From Phycisphaeraceae bacterium (GTDB lineage: Bacteria; Planctomycetota; Phycisphaerae; Phycisphaerales; Phycisphaeraceae): DNA of 64,000 nt. Shown here in pieces: positions 24,842-37,067 of this stretch. Made by a program: the position numbers and the translations under genes. How positions within the stretch are numbered: position 1 is the stretch's first letter; every line of letters begins with the position of its first letter. Under the pieces are notes generated by a model. It was given only the letters and a program-made list of their open reading frames with translations, made no database searches and had not been told where the DNA came from. Where the stretch lies: NCBI GenBank assembly GCA_963674705.1, contig OY771506.1, positions 2,656,001 to 2,720,000 of the forward strand. Direction: 5' to 3'.

Positions 24842-26362
24842 TTACCCGAGCAAGGAGAGTACTGACTGTGGTTGACTGTTGGAGATACTCAAGACATTGG
24901 TTGCCGCATTGACCAGGATCTGGCTGCGAGTCAGTTCCGCCGTCTCTGAGGCGAAGTCGGTGTCGCGGATCGAACTTTCAGCGGCGCTGGTGTTCTCAAG
25001 GGCGACGCCCAGTGAGTTGATGGTTGCGCCGATGACGTTCTTCTGGAACGCACCGAGTCGTCCACGCAGGCTAGAGACCTGAGTGATTGCATCATTGATG
25101 ATCTTCTGACCCAGTTCGAGGTTGCCGTCCACGACGTTGGCGGTCTTGGAGGAGCCGAGATCGTCGAGGTAACCATTTTCCAGTGAGCCGAGGTTACGCG
25201 ATGCGACATTTTCGATGCCGATGCTGACCTGGTTCTGGATATCGACGTTGGGGCCGAGGTTGAACTTGGCGCCGCCGCCGGTGATGGTCATGGCGCTGAT
25301 TGAACCGAGCGTTTGTGCGCCGGTTGTGGTCAGATCGAGTTCGACATCGAGGAAGTCGGAGACGATCCGAGCGGTCTTGCCATCCGAGGTAGCGGCGATG
25401 CCGTTGATGATAGCGCCGACGTCCTGTCCGTCGTCACGCTTGCCGCCGTCACCCAGGTCACGGACTGCCGTGATTGTCTGGATGTTGGAAGCAACGGTGC
25501 TGAACGTGTTCTCGTCCGTTGCCGACATGGTCGTGAAGCTACCGGCCTGGCCGGCATCATCCTTGACGACGATGCTGACGAACTGGTCGGAGCCGAACTC
25601 CGTGCTCTTGAAGACGATGGCACTGGTCTGCGGTGCTGCGGCGGAGACACCCGTGATGGAACTGAACGTGTTGATCGCGGCGACGATGTCAGCCATCGTG
25701 GTACCGGATGCAAACGTGAATTCGCGGGATCCGAGAGCGCCGGTGATCTCGAACTGGAACTGCGCGGTGGACGCGGACAGGTCCAGGGCGGTGCCGCCGG
25801 TTGAGAGCACGAGTGCGGCGTGCTGCGCCGAGTTGGTCACGAGCACTTCGACGTCGCGGTGATCGCTGCCTTCAAGTTTGGCGGCATTGATCTGGAAGTC
25901 CGCAACGGATGTTGACTGTCCGGAGACAGTAAAGTCGAAGGTTCCGTTAAGCAGCTTGGTGCCTTGGAAGCTTGTGGCCGAGGAGATCCGGTCGATCGTC
26001 TGGAGGATCGAGTCGATCTCCAGCTGATTGGCCTTTTTCTCTTCATCACTGAGACCGGCGTCGTTGGCCGAAGCGCCGACGAGGCTCTGGATCTGCAGCA
26101 GCAGAGAGTTGATTTCCTGCAGGCCACCTTCGGCGATGTTGATCACCTGGTCAGCGCGTTCGGCGTTATCGATGGCTGCGGTGATGGACGCCTCTTCCGA
26201 TCGCAGGTTTTCACTGGCGATCAGGCCGGCCGGGTCATCGGCGCCGCGGTTGATGCGGAAGCCGGTGCTCAGCCGTTCGAGCGACGTGCTAAGAGAGTTG
26301 TTTTGCTGGGTCAGGATTCTCTGAGCCAGCAGTGAGTTAACGTTTGTGTTGATACGACTCAT
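24842..26362 (-). CDS. fliC: Flagellin
   Basis: MSRINTNV...LERLSTGFRINRGADDPAGL N-terminus; SSIRDTDFASETAELTRSQIL...VLSLLG C-terminus. Confidence 0.97.
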   Translation of the reverse strand: MSRINTNVNSLLAQRILTQQNNSLSTSLERLSTGFRINRGADDPAGLIASENLRSEEASITAAIDNAERADQVINIAEGGLQEINSLLLQIQSLVGASANDAGLSDEEKKANQLEIDSILQTIDRISSATSFQGTKLLNGTFDFTVSGQSTSVADFQINAAKLEGSDHRDVEVLVTNSAQHAALVLSTGGTALDLSASTAQFQFEITGALGSREFTFASGTTMADIVAAINTFSSITGVSAAAPQTSAIVFKSTEFGSDQFVSIVVKDDAGQAGSFTTMSATDENTFSTVASNIQTITAVRDLGDGGKRDDGQDVGAIINGIAATSDGKTARIVSDFLDVELDLTTTGAQTLGSISAMTITGGGAKFNLGPNVDIQNQVSIGIENVASRNLGSLENGYLDDLGSSKTANVVDGNLELGQKIINDAITQVSSLRGRLGAFQKNVIGATINSLGVALENTSAAESSIRDTDFASETAELTRSQILVNAATNVLSISNSQPQSVLSLLG

Positions 26363-26548
26363 GGTGTCGATCCTCCGTGAAACACGCGGTTCTGTGGTTC
26401 ACCCTTAATCGGGCGCCTGGCTCCTGCCTGGTTACGGTCACAGATCTCCGATCCGATGTGATGCTTTTTTGAACGTGGGTAACAACGCGTTACCCGGTAC
26501 TTTTTTTAACTTGTTGTTCAATGCTTTTGACAGATTTTGTTTTTTATG

Positions 26549-26588
26549 TCATCTGCTCATGTCACCGCTCCTTTCTCCATCCTTGGAG
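26549..26588 (-). promoter_or_regulatory. CsrA-type hairpin + SD + 3-codon mini-ORF (Met-Ser-Arg-stop)
   Basis: Minus strand CTCCA-AGGA-TGGAG AAAGGAG CGGTGAC ATG AGC AGA TGA. Confidence 0.55.
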
Positions 26589-26807
26589 CACGGGAGCCGG
26601 GCGGTGGTCTACCACCCGAATGGATCGTGGGGCTGTCTCGCTTGGCCGACCCTGGCCCTCGATGCAGCCCCGATGCCTGACCAAATTCGGCGGGCCGGGT
26701 CCGCTTTCGCCACCCGGTTATCGAACTTGTCTTATCGGAACAGCGGTCCATTGCGTTCTCCGTTCGCATCCGGGCAGAGGTTTTTGACCCTGCCCGTGCA
26801 ACCGGAG

Positions 26808-26834
26808 TGATCGTCATAACCGGAACACGGCTTA
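26808..26834 (-). promoter_or_regulatory. Probable sigma28 promoter upstream of flagellin 1
   Basis: TAAG-N15-GACGATCA versus consensus TAAA-N15-GCCGATAA. Confidence 0.5.
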
Positions 26835-26995
26835 AGCGCCTCATAATCGGAATAATCGGCCCGCCGATAATCTGTGGTGTGGCGCGCACCAAACCGTGAA
26901 AAGGGGTCCAAAAAAATCGTGATTATTTCGGGCAAAGACGCTGAAGACAGGCTGTCTACGGTAAAGACAGGGCGGCGCGCCGGGTTGAAGCGCGC

Positions 26996-27031
26996 AAAAA
27001 AAAGCGGTGACCGAGTTCACGGCCACCGCTT
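26996..27031 (-). terminator. Intrinsic terminator after flagellin 2
   Basis: AAGCGGTGGCCG...CGGTCACCGC followed by a T8 tract on the minus strand. Confidence 0.8.
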
Positions 27032-27065
27032 GGAGTTTTGTTTATACGGACCTTACTTCGTTTAC

Positions 27066-28589
27066 TTACCCGATCAGGGCCAGCACGTTCTGGGGTCGGC
27101 TGTTGGCGATCGCCAAACTGTTGGTCGCCGCGTTCACCAGGATCTGGTTCCTTGTCAGGGTTGCGGTTTCCGCTGCGAAGTCGGTATCGCGGATGGCACT
27201 TTCTGCCGCGGTCATGTTCTCCAACGCGATGTTCAGAGAGTTGATCGTCGATCCGACCACGTTCTTCTGGAACGAACCGAGTTTGCCGCGGAGGCTCGAA
27301 ACTTCGTCGATGGCGTTGTTGATGATCCGCTGGCTGATGCTCAGGTCACCGTCATCAAGGTCAAAGAGCTTGCCGGAGCCGAGGTCGTCGAGGTTATAGG
27401 ACACACCGCTGACGTATTCACCGCCGAGGTTGCGGGTGGCGACGTTGCCGATGCCCAGACGTGTCTGGTTGGCGATGTCGACTCGAGGTCCGATATTGAA
27501 TTCGGCGCCGCCGCCGGTGATCGTAAAGGCGCTGATGCTGGCGATGGCTTGTGCGGCACCAGAGTTCAGCATGATGGTGGCGTTGAGGCCTTCGGTATTA
27601 ACCGCGAGTTTCAGGCCGTTGCCTGCGGCGGTGTTGCCGTTGATGGTGGCGGCCACGTCCTGGCCGTCGTCACGGATTGCACCATTGGCTGCGGCGAAGG
27701 TGGTATAGCTTGCGGCTTCGGTGGACACGGTGCTCTCATCGGAAGCCGAGGAGAAGTACACACCGGTGTTACCGGCCAGGCCCGGTGCCGCGTCAACATC
27801 GACCGACACGAAGGCGTCTGAACCGAATGCCGTACTCTTAAGCTGCACACCGGTGGTGCCGTCGGACGCCGAGACGCCTGTTACGCCCTTGAAGGCATTG
27901 ATGGCGGTCACCATGTCGGCCACCGTGGCGCCTGAGGCGAAGCTGAACTGGCGTGAGCCCAGCGTGCCGGCGACTTCGAAGGTTAGCCTGCTGTCGGCAT
28001 CGTCATCGAGTTCCAGGGCGCCGGCGGTCGACAGGAAGATCGAACCACGCTGGGCGGACTGGGTTACGAGGACGGACACGTCGGTGTTGGTGCCGTCGGT
28101 GAACTTGGCCGCATCGACCTGTACGTCCAGGACGGTGGTCGCCTGGCCGGAGATCTGGAAGTCGAACGAGCCGTTGAGCAGCTTGGTGCCCTGGAAGCTC
28201 GTGGTCGACGCGATACGGTCGATGGTCTGCAGGATCTGGTCGACCTGCAATTGGTTGGCTTTGCGCTCTTCTTCGCTCAGGCCCGCGTCGTTGGCACTGG
28301 AGGTGACCAGGCTCTGGACTTCCAGAAGCAGGTTCTGGACTTCCTGCAGGCCGCCTTCAGCGACGTTGACGACCTGTTCAGCACGCTCGGCGTTGCCGAT
28401 GGCGGCTTCGAGAGTCACTTTTTCTGAGCGCAGTTTTTCACTGGCGATCAGGCCAGCCGGATCATCGCTACCTCGATTGATCCGGTAACCCGTGCTCAGC
28501 CGCTCCAGCGACTTGGTCAGGCCTTGATTCTGTTGGCCCAGGATGCGTTGGGCGATCAGCGAGTTAACATTGGTGTTGATCCGACTCAT
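27066..28589 (-). CDS. fliC: Flagellin (paralog)
   Basis: Same conserved termini as 24842-26362 with a divergent central domain. Confidence 0.97.
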   Translation of the reverse strand: MSRINTNVNSLIAQRILGQQNQGLTKSLERLSTGYRINRGSDDPAGLIASEKLRSEKVTLEAAIGNAERAEQVVNVAEGGLQEVQNLLLEVQSLVTSSANDAGLSEEERKANQLQVDQILQTIDRIASTTSFQGTKLLNGSFDFQISGQATTVLDVQVDAAKFTDGTNTDVSVLVTQSAQRGSIFLSTAGALELDDDADSRLTFEVAGTLGSRQFSFASGATVADMVTAINAFKGVTGVSASDGTTGVQLKSTAFGSDAFVSVDVDAAPGLAGNTGVYFSSASDESTVSTEAASYTTFAAANGAIRDDGQDVAATINGNTAAGNGLKLAVNTEGLNATIMLNSGAAQAIASISAFTITGGGAEFNIGPRVDIANQTRLGIGNVATRNLGGEYVSGVSYNLDDLGSGKLFDLDDGDLSISQRIINNAIDEVSSLRGKLGSFQKNVVGSTINSLNIALENMTAAESAIRDTDFAAETATLTRNQILVNAATNSLAIANSRPQNVLALIG

Positions 28590-32486: not shown

Positions 32487-32984
32487 ATGACAGCTATGGC
32501 AAAAATTGAGGAATATAAAGTCAAGAGCCCGTGGGAAGACCGTTGGGTCCAGCCGGAGCTGGCGCAGTTGCTGAATCCCCTGGATGAGCAGCGTCGTAAG
32601 ATTGTGGACATCCTGATCGAGAAGATCAACGAGTTTCCGGGTGTCCACCAGGGCCTGATCTGGCACGGTGCGGCGTGGCGCTGGACGCTGGAATTCTCGC
32701 TTTATGACGAAGATGGCAAGCTGCTTGAAACATTGGCGTATCTGGTGCCGAATCCCGAGACGCCGGTGTTGTGTGTGCCGATGAAGTCGCAGATGGTTGA
32801 GAAGCTGCCGATCAAGCGGCTGAACCGGTACATCCGTGACGGGATCCGTGTTGCCAAGCGTGCGATGGATACCCATTGGGCGGTATGGACACCGACGGCC
32901 GTGACGGAGACCGAACACCTGATGGATTTGATCAAACGTCGCCACAAGATCCTGCTCGCTGAGCGGACTGAGGATGCGGCGTGA
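32487..32984 (+). CDS. Conserved hypothetical protein
   Basis: 165-aa ORF with typical codon usage; no family assigned with confidence. Confidence 0.7.
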   Translation: MTAMAKIEEYKVKSPWEDRWVQPELAQLLNPLDEQRRKIVDILIEKINEFPGVHQGLIWHGAAWRWTLEFSLYDEDGKLLETLAYLVPNPETPVLCVPMKSQMVEKLPIKRLNRYIRDGIRVAKRAMDTHWAVWTPTAVTETEHLMDLIKRRHKILLAERTEDAA

Positions 32985-33136
32985 CAGATATCAGTTGTGC
33001 GCTATAACGGGCATCTGATTGTTACATTTTTCGGACCTTGTCCAATCCAATTACCTGTTCATGTAGATAAACGGATGCAGGTCATCTCGGTGGGTTAACT
33101 TGTGCGCGAAAGTGTCAGAAAAAAGTTAGAAAATGA

Positions 33137-33164
33137 TTGACCTGGCGGGGGTGTAGACGATAAT
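33137..33164 (+). promoter_or_regulatory. sigma70-type promoter
   Basis: TTGACC-N16-GATAAT with an A-rich upstream element. Confidence 0.7.
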
Positions 33165-33169
33165 TAGGT

Positions 33170-33520
33170 TGTCGACCGAGCCTGCTGATAGTAAGCGAGA
33201 AAACCTCTCTGAATGTCAGTATGAGCGGAGTCGACCGAGCATCGGATCGTAGACCCCTGCGGCCGATGAGCGCGGTGCCCCGGTAAGACGTTACGGGGCG
33301 GAAAGACTCCGGCGGCCACGGGTCGTTCGCATACGGCAACGACACGAGATGGTGACGGCTGGGATTGGCTCTTTTCAGAATGGAGGTGATCCTTGGATAA
33401 CGACTGTATGAGCGTCTGGAGTGGGCTGCGTTAGGCAGCTCGACGGGGCTGTAGAGCAGCTCCCACTACCAGACCATCAAGCTATGCCCGCCCCGATGCG
33501 TTGGGGCGGGCTTATTTTTT
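33170..33520 (+). ncRNA. Putative ~350-nt structured RNA / small-ORF transcript of unknown class
   Basis: Bounded by a promoter and a terminator; many hairpins; GTCGACCGAGC x2; GGAGGTGATCC; 13-codon ORF at 33393-33434. Confidence 0.6.
33486..33520 (+). terminator. Rho-independent terminator
   Basis: GCCCGCCCC...GGGGCGGGC followed by TTATTTTTT. Confidence 0.9.
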
Positions 33521-33573
33521 GGGGGTAGCGATTTTTAATCGCTAATTTCGAATCGTTAATCGCTAATGTTTCT

Positions 33574-33619
33574 AACCCAACGCCGGTTCTGAGCGCAGCG
33601 AAGGGCCGGGTATCTTTCT
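33574..33619. repeat. Reverse copy of the 22025-22069 repeat
   Basis: aacccaacgccggttctgagcgcagcgaagggccgggtatctttct. Confidence 0.8.
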
Positions 33620-33701
33620 GTGATTCGGTGAATTTCATTTTCTGCATTTTCTGCTTTTTTAATTTCCAGTTTTCCTATTCCCCCTCCGCCCGATTACACT
33701 C

Positions 33702-34859
33702 TTGTCCATGTCATCCCGGGAACATGATGCACTTCTGGCTCTAACACTTTCCGAGGGTTTCGGACAAGCCACGATTCAACGTTGTGTCGAAACGTTCGGC
33801 AGCGCTGCGGGCTCGCTCGATGCTTCGGCTGAGCAATTTGCACGTCTCGATCAAGTGGGAATGCAGCGTGCACGCAAGTTGCGGGCGGCGCTCGATCGAA
33901 CTTTACAAAGCGGGTTGGTAGAAGCTGAGCGGGAATTGATCGCATCGCATGATGTGCATCTGATTGCGTTTGGTGATGAAGAATACCCGCAGCTACTGAA
34001 GCACATCCCCGATCCGCCAACACTGCTTTGGGTGCGTGGGCGGATGGTTGAAGAAGATGCGCTGGCGCTTGGGATAGTGGGTTCTAGACGTTGTTCTCAC
34101 TATGGCAGAGAGCAGGCGGATCGGTTTGCGAGTTTGTGTGCACAGAGTGGGTTGTGCATCGTCAGTGGTGGGGCACGCGGGATCGATGGAGCGGCGCATC
34201 GCGCGGCTCTGCGCATGGGTGGGCGGACGATCGCTGTGATCGGTTCGGGGTTGGCGCAGCCTTACCCGCATGACCATAAAGACCTGTTCGATGAAATCGT
34301 GGCCTCAGATGGCGAGCACGGCGCGGTGATCAGTGAGTTTCCGATGTCAACGCCGCCCAGCGCACAGAACTTCCCGCGGCGGAACCGGATCATCTCGGGT
34401 TTATCATTAGGCGTGCTGGTTGTCGAAGCGGCGCAGCGGAGCGGGGCGCTCATCACGGCGAGGGTGGCGGTCGAGGAACATCATCGGGAGTTGATGGCGA
34501 TCCCGGGGCGTGTTGATTCGCAGGGTTCGGCCGGCTGCCACAAGATCATCCGCGAGGGCTGGGCGACGCTCGTGACGAGCCCGGCGGACGTATTGGATGC
34601 GCTGGGTGAAGCGGGACAAATGCTGAAGGTCGGGCTGACGAAAGAAGAACCGAAAGAGGATCAGAGCCTGTTTACGGATATCGGGTTGACTGAGAAGCAG
34701 AAGCAAATCCTGGAAGCAATGAACGGGACCTGCAGCCTGGATCAGATCGTGGCGCACAGCGGATTGCCGATCGAGAAGGTGCAGGCGGAGCTGACGATGC
34801 TGGAGCTGCGGGGGCTTGTGAAGCGGCGGGGCGGGTTGTTTACGCGGAAAAAAGGGTAA
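33702..34859 (+). CDS. dprA: DNA-processing protein DprA
   Basis: YP..LK.IPDPP.LL, IVGSR, VSGGARGID..AH, FPRRNRIISGLS, SGALITA; C-terminal winged helix. Confidence 0.96.
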   Translation: MSMSSREHDALLALTLSEGFGQATIQRCVETFGSAAGSLDASAEQFARLDQVGMQRARKLRAALDRTLQSGLVEAERELIASHDVHLIAFGDEEYPQLLKHIPDPPTLLWVRGRMVEEDALALGIVGSRRCSHYGREQADRFASLCAQSGLCIVSGGARGIDGAAHRAALRMGGRTIAVIGSGLAQPYPHDHKDLFDEIVASDGEHGAVISEFPMSTPPSAQNFPRRNRIISGLSLGVLVVEAAQRSGALITARVAVEEHHRELMAIPGRVDSQGSAGCHKIIREGWATLVTSPADVLDALGEAGQMLKVGLTKEEPKEDQSLFTDIGLTEKQKQILEAMNGTCSLDQIVAHSGLPIEKVQAELTMLELRGLVKRRGGLFTRKKG

Positions 34860-36330: not shown

Positions 36331-36484
36331 GTTGTTCCAATAGAAAGGAGCGACAGCGGTCACGCCCTAGATAGTTTGCATACTCAAACTCTTACTGCAC
36401 GAAAACCTCATTTTCAGGCGTGGCTGTGTTAATATATTTTCCGGGGTGATTCGTGGAAGGTTTTCGTGTGGTCGGAGTTTATCC

Positions 36485-36694
36485 ATGCCCAGCGATGTTC
36501 CCTTTTCACAGGTCAGAAAACTACTTGAATCACACGGATGGACATGTAGTCGGGTTCGCGGCTCGCATCATGTTTTCACCAAGGAAGGCGAAACGCCGAT
36601 TATTATTCCGGTCCATCGTCGAAAGGTGAAGTTTGGATATGTCCACCGGATCAAAAAACAACTCGAAGAAGAAGGCAAAGGGCAAGGCGATTGA
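36485..36694 (+). CDS. hicA: HicA-family toxin (mRNA interferase)
   Basis: LLE.HGW...RVRGSHHVF.K.G...IIIPVH. Confidence 0.9.
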   Translation: MPSDVPFSQVRKLLESHGWTCSRVRGSHHVFTKEGETPIIIPVHRRKVKFGYVHRIKKQLEEEGKGQGD

Positions 36695-37067
36695 TGCGCC
36701 GTTTGACCCCAAGCTCTGGAAGCAGGCGGCCGAGATCGCTTCGACCTATCGTTTGATTATTGAGAAGGAGCCGGAGGTAGGGGGGTACCTGGGGCGTTCG
36801 GTGGAGATGCCGATGGTGATGTCGGATGGGCCGACGATCGCCAAGTGTGCGACCGAGACGCTTGAGGCGATGACGCTGGCAGTGGCGACGATGCTTGAAG
36901 ACGGGGAACGTCCGCCGATGTCCAGCAAAACTGAAAAACGCACGGCCCAGGTCAACGTGCGGTTGACCGAGGAAGAAAAACTTCGGTTGGAAGAGGCTGC
37001 CAAGCGGCAGGGGTTTCGGGGTATTTCGGATTACATCCGGTCGGCGGCGCTTAAAGAAGCAAGCTAA
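36633..37067 (+). CDS. hicB: HicB-family antitoxin with C-terminal ribbon-helix-helix domain
   Basis: GGY.G..VEMP.V.SDG.T...EA.......G..PP, then QVNVRLTEEEK..LEEAA..QG..ISDYIR. Confidence 0.88.
   Translation: MDMSTGSKNNSKKKAKGKAIDAPFDPKLWKQAAEIASTYRLIIEKEPEVGGYLGRSVEMPMVMSDGPTIAKCATETLEAMTLAVATMLEDGERPPMSSKTEKRTAQVNVRLTEEEKLRLEEAAKRQGFRGISDYIRSAALKEAS

Follow-up and report, generated by a model that had tools for sequence, protein, structure and literature searches.

The 717 bp gap between a gene for a 165-aa protein and dprA in the genome of this Phycisphaeraceae bacterium holds an RNA gene that, judged by comparison with its relatives, is real: a conserved, structured and nearly always single-copy element. 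It lies in the 64,000 nt stretch of DNA that was analyzed (“the window” below), and gene context and comparative data support a stand-alone transcript with its own promoter and terminator. The putative transcript carries a short ORF that has an extended complement of the 16S rRNA 3′ tail (SD1) in front of its start codon and a second Shine–Dalgarno-like word (SD2) in front of its stop codon (Table 1; the labels P1–P7, SD1 and SD2 are coined in the present analysis). We propose, at a probability of about 0.4, that this RNA stands alone and serves to load a ribosome and tether it at termination, which would park the ribosome and shield its anti-SD. A preliminary description of this DNA had suggested a stand-alone structured RNA with a long anti-SD complement and a short ORF; the sequences that it quoted are all present where it placed them, and the comparative data back the conservation of structure, SD1 and ORF. 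The layout has precedents among catalogued RNAs.

Table 1. Predicted parts of the RNA element and its neighboring genes (positions in the window)
Feature	Position	Strand	Remarks
Sigma70-type promoter (TTGACC 33137-33142, GATAAT 33159-33164)	33137..33164	+	10/12 match; columns invariant in 10 genus sequences
Predicted transcript, ~350 nt	33170..33520	+	Ends inferred from promoter and U-tract
P1, variable long hairpin	33170..33235	+	Closed by GTCGAC/GTCGAC
P2 hairpin (CGAGC...GAGCG)	33236..33272	+	Covaries within genus
P4 hairpin	33277..33299	+	GACG tetraloop 33287-33290
P5	33308..33363	+	Helix TCCGGC/GCTGGG, internal loop G / GACG (33354-33357), apical hairpin that varies
P5 apical loop	33330-33336	+	Pairs with ORF
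SD1, extended complement of 16S 3′ tail (AGAAtGGAGGTGATCC)	33377..33392	+	11 perfect nt at 33382-33392
13-codon ORF (MDNDCMSVWSGLR)	33393..33434	+	TTG start, TAG stop
ORF strand of predicted pseudoknot (CTGTATG)	33404..33410	+	7 bp with P5 loop CATACGG
SD2, second SD-like word (GGAGTGGG)	33418..33425	+	Aligned spacing 5 to last sense codon
P6	33414..33474	+	ORF end 33414-33429 paired with 33456-33474; masks SD2, encloses stop codon and P7
P7 hairpin, right after stop	33435..33452	+	GACG tetraloop 33442-33445
Intrinsic terminator	33486..33520	+	
Upstream neighbor, 165-aa protein	32487..32984	+	No Pfam/NCBIfam family; outside RNA
Downstream neighbor dprA	33702..34859	+	Outside RNA; conserved neighbor in part of family only

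The locus

The promoter and terminator lie where the preliminary description had put them and are the sole promoter-like (10/12) and terminator-like sites in 32600-34000. Each taken alone is at the level of shuffled sequence (means 1.0 and 1.5, respectively), but a TTGAC-N16-21-TAAT promoter and a terminator are present in all 16 parsed homologs. The 33170-33520 segment folds with z = -5.64 (0/100 shuffles as good). Immediately after the terminator (33523-33575) the window has an AT-rich dispersed repeat of AATCGCTAAT-like units, similar copies of which are numerous in the genome by BLAST, 16 being counted with a strict pattern; it looks like a REP-like intergenic repeat. Elsewhere in the window a gene for a HicA-family toxin is followed by one for a HicB/NikA-like partner (36446-37067), and two tandem minus strand genes (24842-28589) are presumably flagellin-like. 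Outside the window about 30 tRNA genes are arrayed on one strand (G000:C1:622407-634804), and there are two tRNA-Sec calls in the host genome.

Distribution in the Planctomycetota

BLAST finds the element in nine of ten congeners. A pattern search matched 66 of 251 genomes of the order (Phycisphaerales), the reversed control giving 6; the 93 loci examined were reduced to 75 by removal of 8 rejected loci and 10 duplicates, and to 74 when one near-identical copy was dropped. A covariance model (R1) built from 40 sequences matched 103 of 141 order genomes, representing all six families, with a single match in each except one genome with two; this tally includes one unpublished genome (G131), whose locus is left out of the later alignments and counts. 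In the phylum at large R1 matched 31 of 150 genomes, and another pattern search had matches in 81 of 301 (control, 9 genomes); from the 30 loci that this pattern returned, 10 without the ORF layout and 8 others missed by the parser were dropped. The resulting set (n = 139) has 86 members from the order and 53 from outside it, and addition of 10 of 16 metagenome matches gives a set of 149.

A broader model, R2, matched 65 of the 150 phylum genomes once each, many of these being the R2 training set; in it the four outer P7 pairs are one column off and P6 is omitted, and it was used for searching only. Among its 17 new matches 14 have SD1 and an ORF, one of these ORFs being 33 codons long, and several families in the phylum sample have no R2 match (for example, 0/8, 0/8 and 0/4). 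Conservation across the Planctomycetota, a check that the preliminary description had proposed, is evident from both the order (R1) and phylum (R2) counts. Loose patterns applied to viral and genome contigs returned 240 loci, 10 of them homologous and all 10 titled Phycisphaerae, Phycisphaerales or Phycisphaeraceae, and the strict pattern matched 0 viral contigs.

Secondary structure

In 68 realigned order sequences 29 of 32 base pairs show changes on both sides and 94.6% of the cells are paired. This covariation, in an alignment that was fitted to the model, exceeds that of 500/500 shuffles and of every slid control, though permutation counts overstate significance for sequences that, as kin, are not independent. 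The stems P4, P5, P6 and P7 all covary, as the preliminary description had expected of a functional RNA that could be checked in this way, and in P4 all eight pairs have both-side changes. A GACG tetraloop caps the P4 stem in 64 of 74 order homologs, P7 with its own GACG tetraloop lies 4-14 nt past the stop codon in 58 of the 74, and a third GACG, owed to the way the loci were selected, is present in the P5 internal loop. At the 5′ end the letters of what had been described as “tandem GTCGACCGAGC units” are present, but these are two strands of one helix, P1, since GTCGAC is palindromic and the strands covary in the genus; two exact GTCGACCGAGC copies occur in only one of 86 order homologs.

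The apical loop of P5 is complementary to codons ~3-6 of the RNA's own ORF in 68 of 74 order sequences (the other 6 were not parsed), which points to a pseudoknot. The loop:ORF duplex has -5.7 kcal/mol, vs -4.5 kcal/mol for permuted partners, and 0/100000 permutations are as good. The signal is strong for RNAs with a short P5 (0/50000) and weaker for those with a long P5 (575/50000); it survives thinning to 52 sequences and is absent from two control regions in the same permutation test.

The 3′ part of the RNA can be drawn in two ways. The hairpins of the preliminary description, which stand side by side, are present as sequences, but that arrangement is not the favored one: a nested fold, in which GGGCTGC of the ORF pairs with the last GCAGCTC around the GACG-capped hairpin, is better (-37.5 vs -31.2 kcal/mol). 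Side-by-side pairing probably exists as an alternative state of the RNA, but not as its ground state. In the 68 homologs the nested helices are paired in 94% and 89% of cases and the side-by-side helices in 83% and 81%, and this retention of pairing in both folds suggests that the 3′ part may switch between them. It is also conceivable, and this is a guess by analogy, that the P4 and P7 GACG loops make a kissing contact; in murine leukemia virus (MuLV) paired GACG loops form loop–loop contacts (PMC5874298), where the gammaretroviral SL-C/SL-D pair consists of two stems with conserved GACG caps, a resemblance to the element that is purely a structural analogy.

The short ORF

The 13-codon ORF that had been noticed is present and its frame is retained in relatives, where indels within the genus are of 3 nt and so preserve it. 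The ORF has 9-15 codons in 130 of the 139 members and 10-14 codons in 124 of them, the outside-order members having been selected for an ORF of 6-25 codons. Start codons are GTG (98), TTG (21) and ATG (20), and stop codons are TAG (53), TAA (46) and TGA (40). In the order the peptides follow the pattern M-x-D/E-C-x-K/R-G-L-R/H, with Cys in 77, GL in 66 and DC or EC in 48 of the 86; outside the order Cys is found in 25 of 53 and the peptide is not conserved. In some lineages (L013:1540-1740 of G026, L276, L298, L299 and L292) runs of Cys codons enlarge the ORF without a change of frame, the largest variant being metallothionein-like (35 aa with 11 Cys), with C-terminal GLR and flanking structure intact. 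One genus (g28; L369, L371, L374 and L385) has a Cys-free variant of 18-19 codons in which the P4 loop is altered and an extra hairpin stands before SD1.

The RNA could be a ribosome-driven sensor that acts in trans, loaded and unfolded as in the tethering reading but serving to read translation capacity or the supply of Cys-tRNA, in which the position of the ribosome would flip the nested and side-by-side folds; the flip would make the 3′ strand or the GACG loops accessible or inaccessible to a protein or a target RNA, much like an attenuator without a downstream operon. The maintenance of both 3′ folds in the order and of GACG at three fixed places agrees with such a device, as do the prevalence of Cys in the order ORFs, its encoding by TGT, the less used codon, for 98 of 114 Cys (35% TGT in the genome) and the Cys runs mentioned above; SD-like words near the stop codons of attenuator leaders are, moreover, cited in PMC5737721. 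The TGT codon falls in the pseudoknot strand, however, which can account for the codon choice, 28 of the 53 outside-order ORFs have no Cys, and the GACG hairpin after the stop codon is found in 0/20 of the Myxococcota-type and 0/13 of the Acidobacteriota-type RNAs discussed below. No target or partner protein emerged, and we consider such a sensor doubtful.

That the element is a small mRNA, or an RNA of dual function, made for the 10-14-aa peptide itself (x-D-C-x-K/R-G-L-R in the order), with a structure that would set stability and timing, seems to us unlikely. Preservation of the frame, by indels of 3 nt, by synonymous substitutions and by exchange of stop codons, counts in its favor, as do the narrow range of lengths, the Cys-rich 35-aa variant and the occurrence of S/D-C-T/S near the start of Myxococcota-type ORFs as well. 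Yet peptides from outside the order share little (endings are, for example, RRPSS, RGGTA, RRWVR and EVAAS), starts are the weak GTG or TTG in 119 of 139, and what is kept before the stop codon is a nucleotide word that persists across reading frames, beyond what synonymous codons would predict. The structure-gated micropeptide that the preliminary description had offered as a product is weakened by the fall in Cys from 77/86 to 25/53 beyond the order.

SD1 and the 16S rRNA tail

The host's own 16S gene ends in GGCTGGATCACCTCCTTTCT (this is the gene sequence, and the mature end may differ), in agreement with the complementarity to the 16S tail that had been claimed from a canonical sequence. 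The SD1 11-mer occurs three times in 5.5 Mb (in the 16S gene, the element and one other place). Its duplex with the tail has -24.9 kcal/mol, whereas the strongest among those upstream of the ATG starts of 1740 long ORFs has -23.5. The comparative data bear out that SD1 is unusually long. All 149 homologs have a complement of 9-18 perfect nt, which is partly due to their selection, and it lies 5-6 nt upstream of the start codon in 130 of the 149; at up to 18 nt it reaches both the start codon and helix 45 at its base. The idea that the genome is simply poor in SDs was rejected, since long ORFs show an enrichment of GGAG in front of them, at -13 to -10, and the genome has bS21. A scheme in which reloading is blocked by SD1 pairing anew with the 3′ strand once this is free was likewise dropped: such complementarity is at shuffle level in the order (42/86) and modest outside it (38/53).

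The great length of SD1, reaching as far as it does, is also what an untranslated anti-SD decoy or a guide for the 16S 3′ end would have; SD1 would then pair with the 30S subunit or pre-16S rRNA and the ORF would be incidental. We think this very improbable, given the usual distance of SD1 from a start codon, an intact short ORF whose three stop codons are freely exchanged, and the placement of P6, P7 and SD2 relative to the stop codon and not to SD1.

Gene context and expression

Among the 139 members, a rough composition score calls a co-directional downstream gene in 58 and a convergent one in 41 and makes no call in the other 40, and the co-directional genes are mostly unrelated; convergent and unrelated downstream genes argue for an independent transcript. 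Upstream, the 165-aa protein gene precedes the RNA in many members of its own family. Cys-rich leaders exist among leader-peptide attenuators, and leaders of the trpL/rnTrpL type share with the element the short ORF, alternative hairpins, a terminator and an SD-like word near the stop; unlike them, the element has no fixed downstream operon and has a 220-nt structured 5′ domain and an extreme SD1. The element has its parts in the order of an attenuator (a promoter, then the short ORF, the alternative hairpins and the terminator), and dprA lies downstream at 11 distinct loci in its own family's range. We nevertheless give almost no credence to a riboswitch or leader-peptide attenuator that would act in cis on the gene downstream, here dprA: the context largely refutes it (41 of 99 called downstream genes convergent, co-directional ones unrelated), the element is single copy and no antiterminator is seen.

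RNA contigs of relatives, from four metatranscriptome runs in three studies that were picked for containing words of the stretch, are 152-268 nt long, have depths of 2-108 and lie only within 33207-33487; such contigs reveal neither strand nor termini and could derive from DNA, so they give a weak hint of expression. The flanking genes are represented in these runs by one 36-nt piece only, which carries little weight, as the relatives' genes diverge.

Comparison with known RNA classes

A search of the element against Rfam 15, as had been advised in the preliminary description, gave three matches, all at chance level. The absence of tmRNA, RNase P, SRP and 6S hallmarks that it had noted also stands, and counterparts are found elsewhere in the genome. 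ARAGORN finds no tmRNA in the window and one at C1:4163111, the RNase P and SRP models of Rfam match above cut-off at other places and not at the element, and a sub-threshold 6S-like match likewise lies elsewhere. The element resembles tmRNA in being ~350 nt and single copy and in having a pseudoknot beside a 10-14-codon ORF and a hairpin at the stop, but it differs in carrying its own SD and start codon and in lacking the tRNA-like domain with CCA end; a resume codon without an SD is also absent here. Type I toxin mRNAs encode a hydrophobic peptide of 20-60 aa opposite an antisense promoter; the peptides here are polar and of 10-14 aa, and no minus-strand promoter-like site was found. The Rhodopirellula-1 motif (Weinberg 2010) is not a match either, as its published alignment rows and consensus are unlike the element (PMC2864571 supplement), and key words of the element are absent from eight supplement files. 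The planctomycete family is not in Rfam 15, and the literature searched describes neither it nor an SD-ORF-SD layout in Ms_IGR-5 or CC2171, two Rfam families considered below, although a description may exist in supplements or subscription-only papers beyond that search.

SD2 and a proposed function

It is the second SD-like word that, we infer, specifically supports the trapping or positioning of ribosomes that the preliminary description had raised. A purine word is kept at about -15 to -9 from the stop codon irrespective of peptide or frame. Its score measures anti-SD pairing in a fixed register, and the word was in no search pattern, though R1 spans it. Scores of at least 12 at spacings of 4-6 are found in 56% of the 86 order members and 75% of the 53 outside-order members, and in 7% of 1993 of the genome's own long ORFs; after synonymous recoding 0/2000 runs reach the observed mean score, the rare codons AGG and GGG being the ones that carry SD2. 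The host's own SD2 is modest (GGAG core, score 11) and weaker than that of many relatives, and 24 of the 86 order members score <12 at all spacings. In the modeled fold of the free RNA SD2 is masked by P6, its 5′ bases least, and part of its conservation may be structural, since it is one strand of P6. An SD placed 9-14 nt before a stop codon raises mRNA affinity 7-fold and makes release 50-fold slower, an effect that lasts only until subunit splitting, after which the mRNA leaves rapidly (PMC5737721), and an oligonucleotide whose sequence is the complement of the anti-SD protects 30S subunits against RNase R (PMC10901742).

In the reading that we prefer, a loading and tethering RNA, SD1 with its mostly GTG or TTG start would recruit the 30S subunit tightly. 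The pseudoknot at codons 3-6 and P6 over SD2 would gate and slow the ribosome, which would melt both as it unfolds the RNA across some dozen codons. With the stop codon in the A site SD2 could then pair with the anti-SD, and the RNA would stay on the post-termination ribosome or on the 30S subunit. A ribosome in this position would cover the 5′ strand of P6 and that of P7, with the result that the P7 GACG loop would be lost and the alternative 3′ hairpin could form, the free RNA being possibly closed by the P4–P7 GACG kissing contact. The purpose would be a ribosome store or a shield for the anti-SD. The loop loss and refolding and the purpose are the weakest parts of this scheme. Long-term parking would need an extra factor, as the SD effect described above ends at subunit splitting (PMC5737721). 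The HPF/RaiA (Ribosomal_S30AE) family has four matches in this genome (C1:2421896, 2620929, 2805514 and 4808585), which counts against the parking reading, as do the unequal SD2 spacings of the groups (3-6 vs 7), the weak SD2 of CC2171-type RNAs and the Cys and GL retained in the peptides of the order.

Similar layouts in other phyla

Outside the Planctomycetota R2 matched 1 of 101 genomes in a Myxococcales-centered sample, and a hold-out search was made there with the 17-mer of SD1 plus GTG alone. This SD1-only search matched 21 of 181 genomes in a Myxococcota-centered sample (control 0), 2 of 131 in a sample around a Desulfatitalea record and 16 of 201 in an Acidobacteriota-centered sample (control 0; the 16 include the unpublished G1125, and the other 15 were then examined). 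ORFs of 13-21 codons follow in 21/21 and 2/2 of the first two groups, with SD2 best at spacing 7 in 15/21 and 2/2, respectively; in the third 12/15 have 14-15 codons with SD2 spacing 7, one has 6 codons and two have long ORFs. For the Myxococcota the recoding control is weak, 58/2000 synonymous runs reaching the observed SD2 score. A GACG-containing pattern gave 9/121 and 7/121 matches in Verrucomicrobiota- and Acidobacteriota-centered samples, near the control and with no such layout by eye; the Verrucomicrobiota blank does not mean absence, because the Acidobacteriota RNAs surfaced only with the SD1-only pattern. Five contigs of a viral collection match CC2171 below threshold, and a plasmid search with the alpha-type member gave one 33-nt match.

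One Acidobacteriota-sample match passes the Ms_IGR-5 model (RF02471; 67.7 vs the cut-off of 45 bits). In Actinobacteria all five Ms_IGR-5 genomes inspected have one copy with SD1, a 12-codon ORF and SD2 at spacing 7. Like the element, this single-copy RNA has AGGAGGTG(G/A)TC, a short ORF, SD2 (GTGAGGTG) ahead of its stop codon, a 3′ strand with complementarity to this SD2 and a terminator-like end. The order SD1, ORF, SD2, stop, 3′ strand, terminator is found in the element as well, with a spacing of 5 here and 7 in Ms_IGR-5. Unlike members of the planctomycete family (spacing 3-6), Ms_IGR-5 has no 5′ domain and reads across SD2 in a different frame, and GACG loops and a pseudoknot are not seen in it. 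Its model (cut-off 45 bits) has 0 matches at E <= 1 in the host genome and matches 0/20 planctomycete relatives, and R2 scores the five Ms_IGR-5 loci at 9-22 bits (9-32 bits for Ms_IGR-5 and CC2171 RNAs overall). Ms_IGR-5 is reported to be transcribed (PMC8079986, PMC8780764) and to have Ribo-seq reads, in a paper that also warns that most ncRNAs show footprints (PMC4974804); the accessible text of this literature mentions neither the ORF, SD2 nor a function.

CC2171 (RF01867), of Caulobacter and other Alphaproteobacteria, starts with GAAAGGAGGTGATCCAGTG, which equals the 17-mer consensus of the order, and has a short ORF and a terminator; in contrast to the element, its SD2 is weak (best scores 10-13) and the 5′ domain is absent. 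Such RNAs are present in four of five alphaproteobacterial genomes, one above the cut-off, with SD1, 14-25 codons and a weak SD2. The CC2171 feature of a 5′ AAAGGAGGTGATCCAGTG followed by a short ORF is found in the order consensus, the host genome having the variant AATGGAGGTGATCCTTG. The CC2171 model (cut-off 75 bits) does not match the element and gives 24-39 bits in 8 of 20 relatives, scores that SD1 and the terminator can explain. CC2171 is confirmed by Northern blot, and the same source identifies no function for it (bioRxiv 2022.01.24.477521). The comparisons show a layout common to the element and Ms_IGR-5, and its SD1-ORF part to CC2171; common descent is not implied.

These RNAs might form a multi-phylum, housekeeping-like class of dead-end mini-mRNAs, in which one SD would capture a ribosome and a second keep it after termination, an RNA counterpart of hibernation factors. 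The class would span Planctomycetota, Myxococcota, Acidobacteriota, the actinomycetotal Ms_IGR-5 and probably the alphaproteobacterial CC2171, and its members would park ribosomes and protect the anti-SD against RNase R as well as against toxins that cut it. We put this generalization forward as speculation, with the odds against it. If it is true, an RNA holds terminating ribosomes in bacteria of several phyla, of which we know no example. The element brings to light a design shared with two Rfam sRNAs that have long been orphans. All have a very short ORF whose start follows a maximal SD, and in Ms_IGR-5 another SD lies where it would hold the ribosome once the stop codon is reached; if the reading is correct, orphan RNAs of Streptomyces, Mycolicibacterium and Caulobacter would become directly testable.
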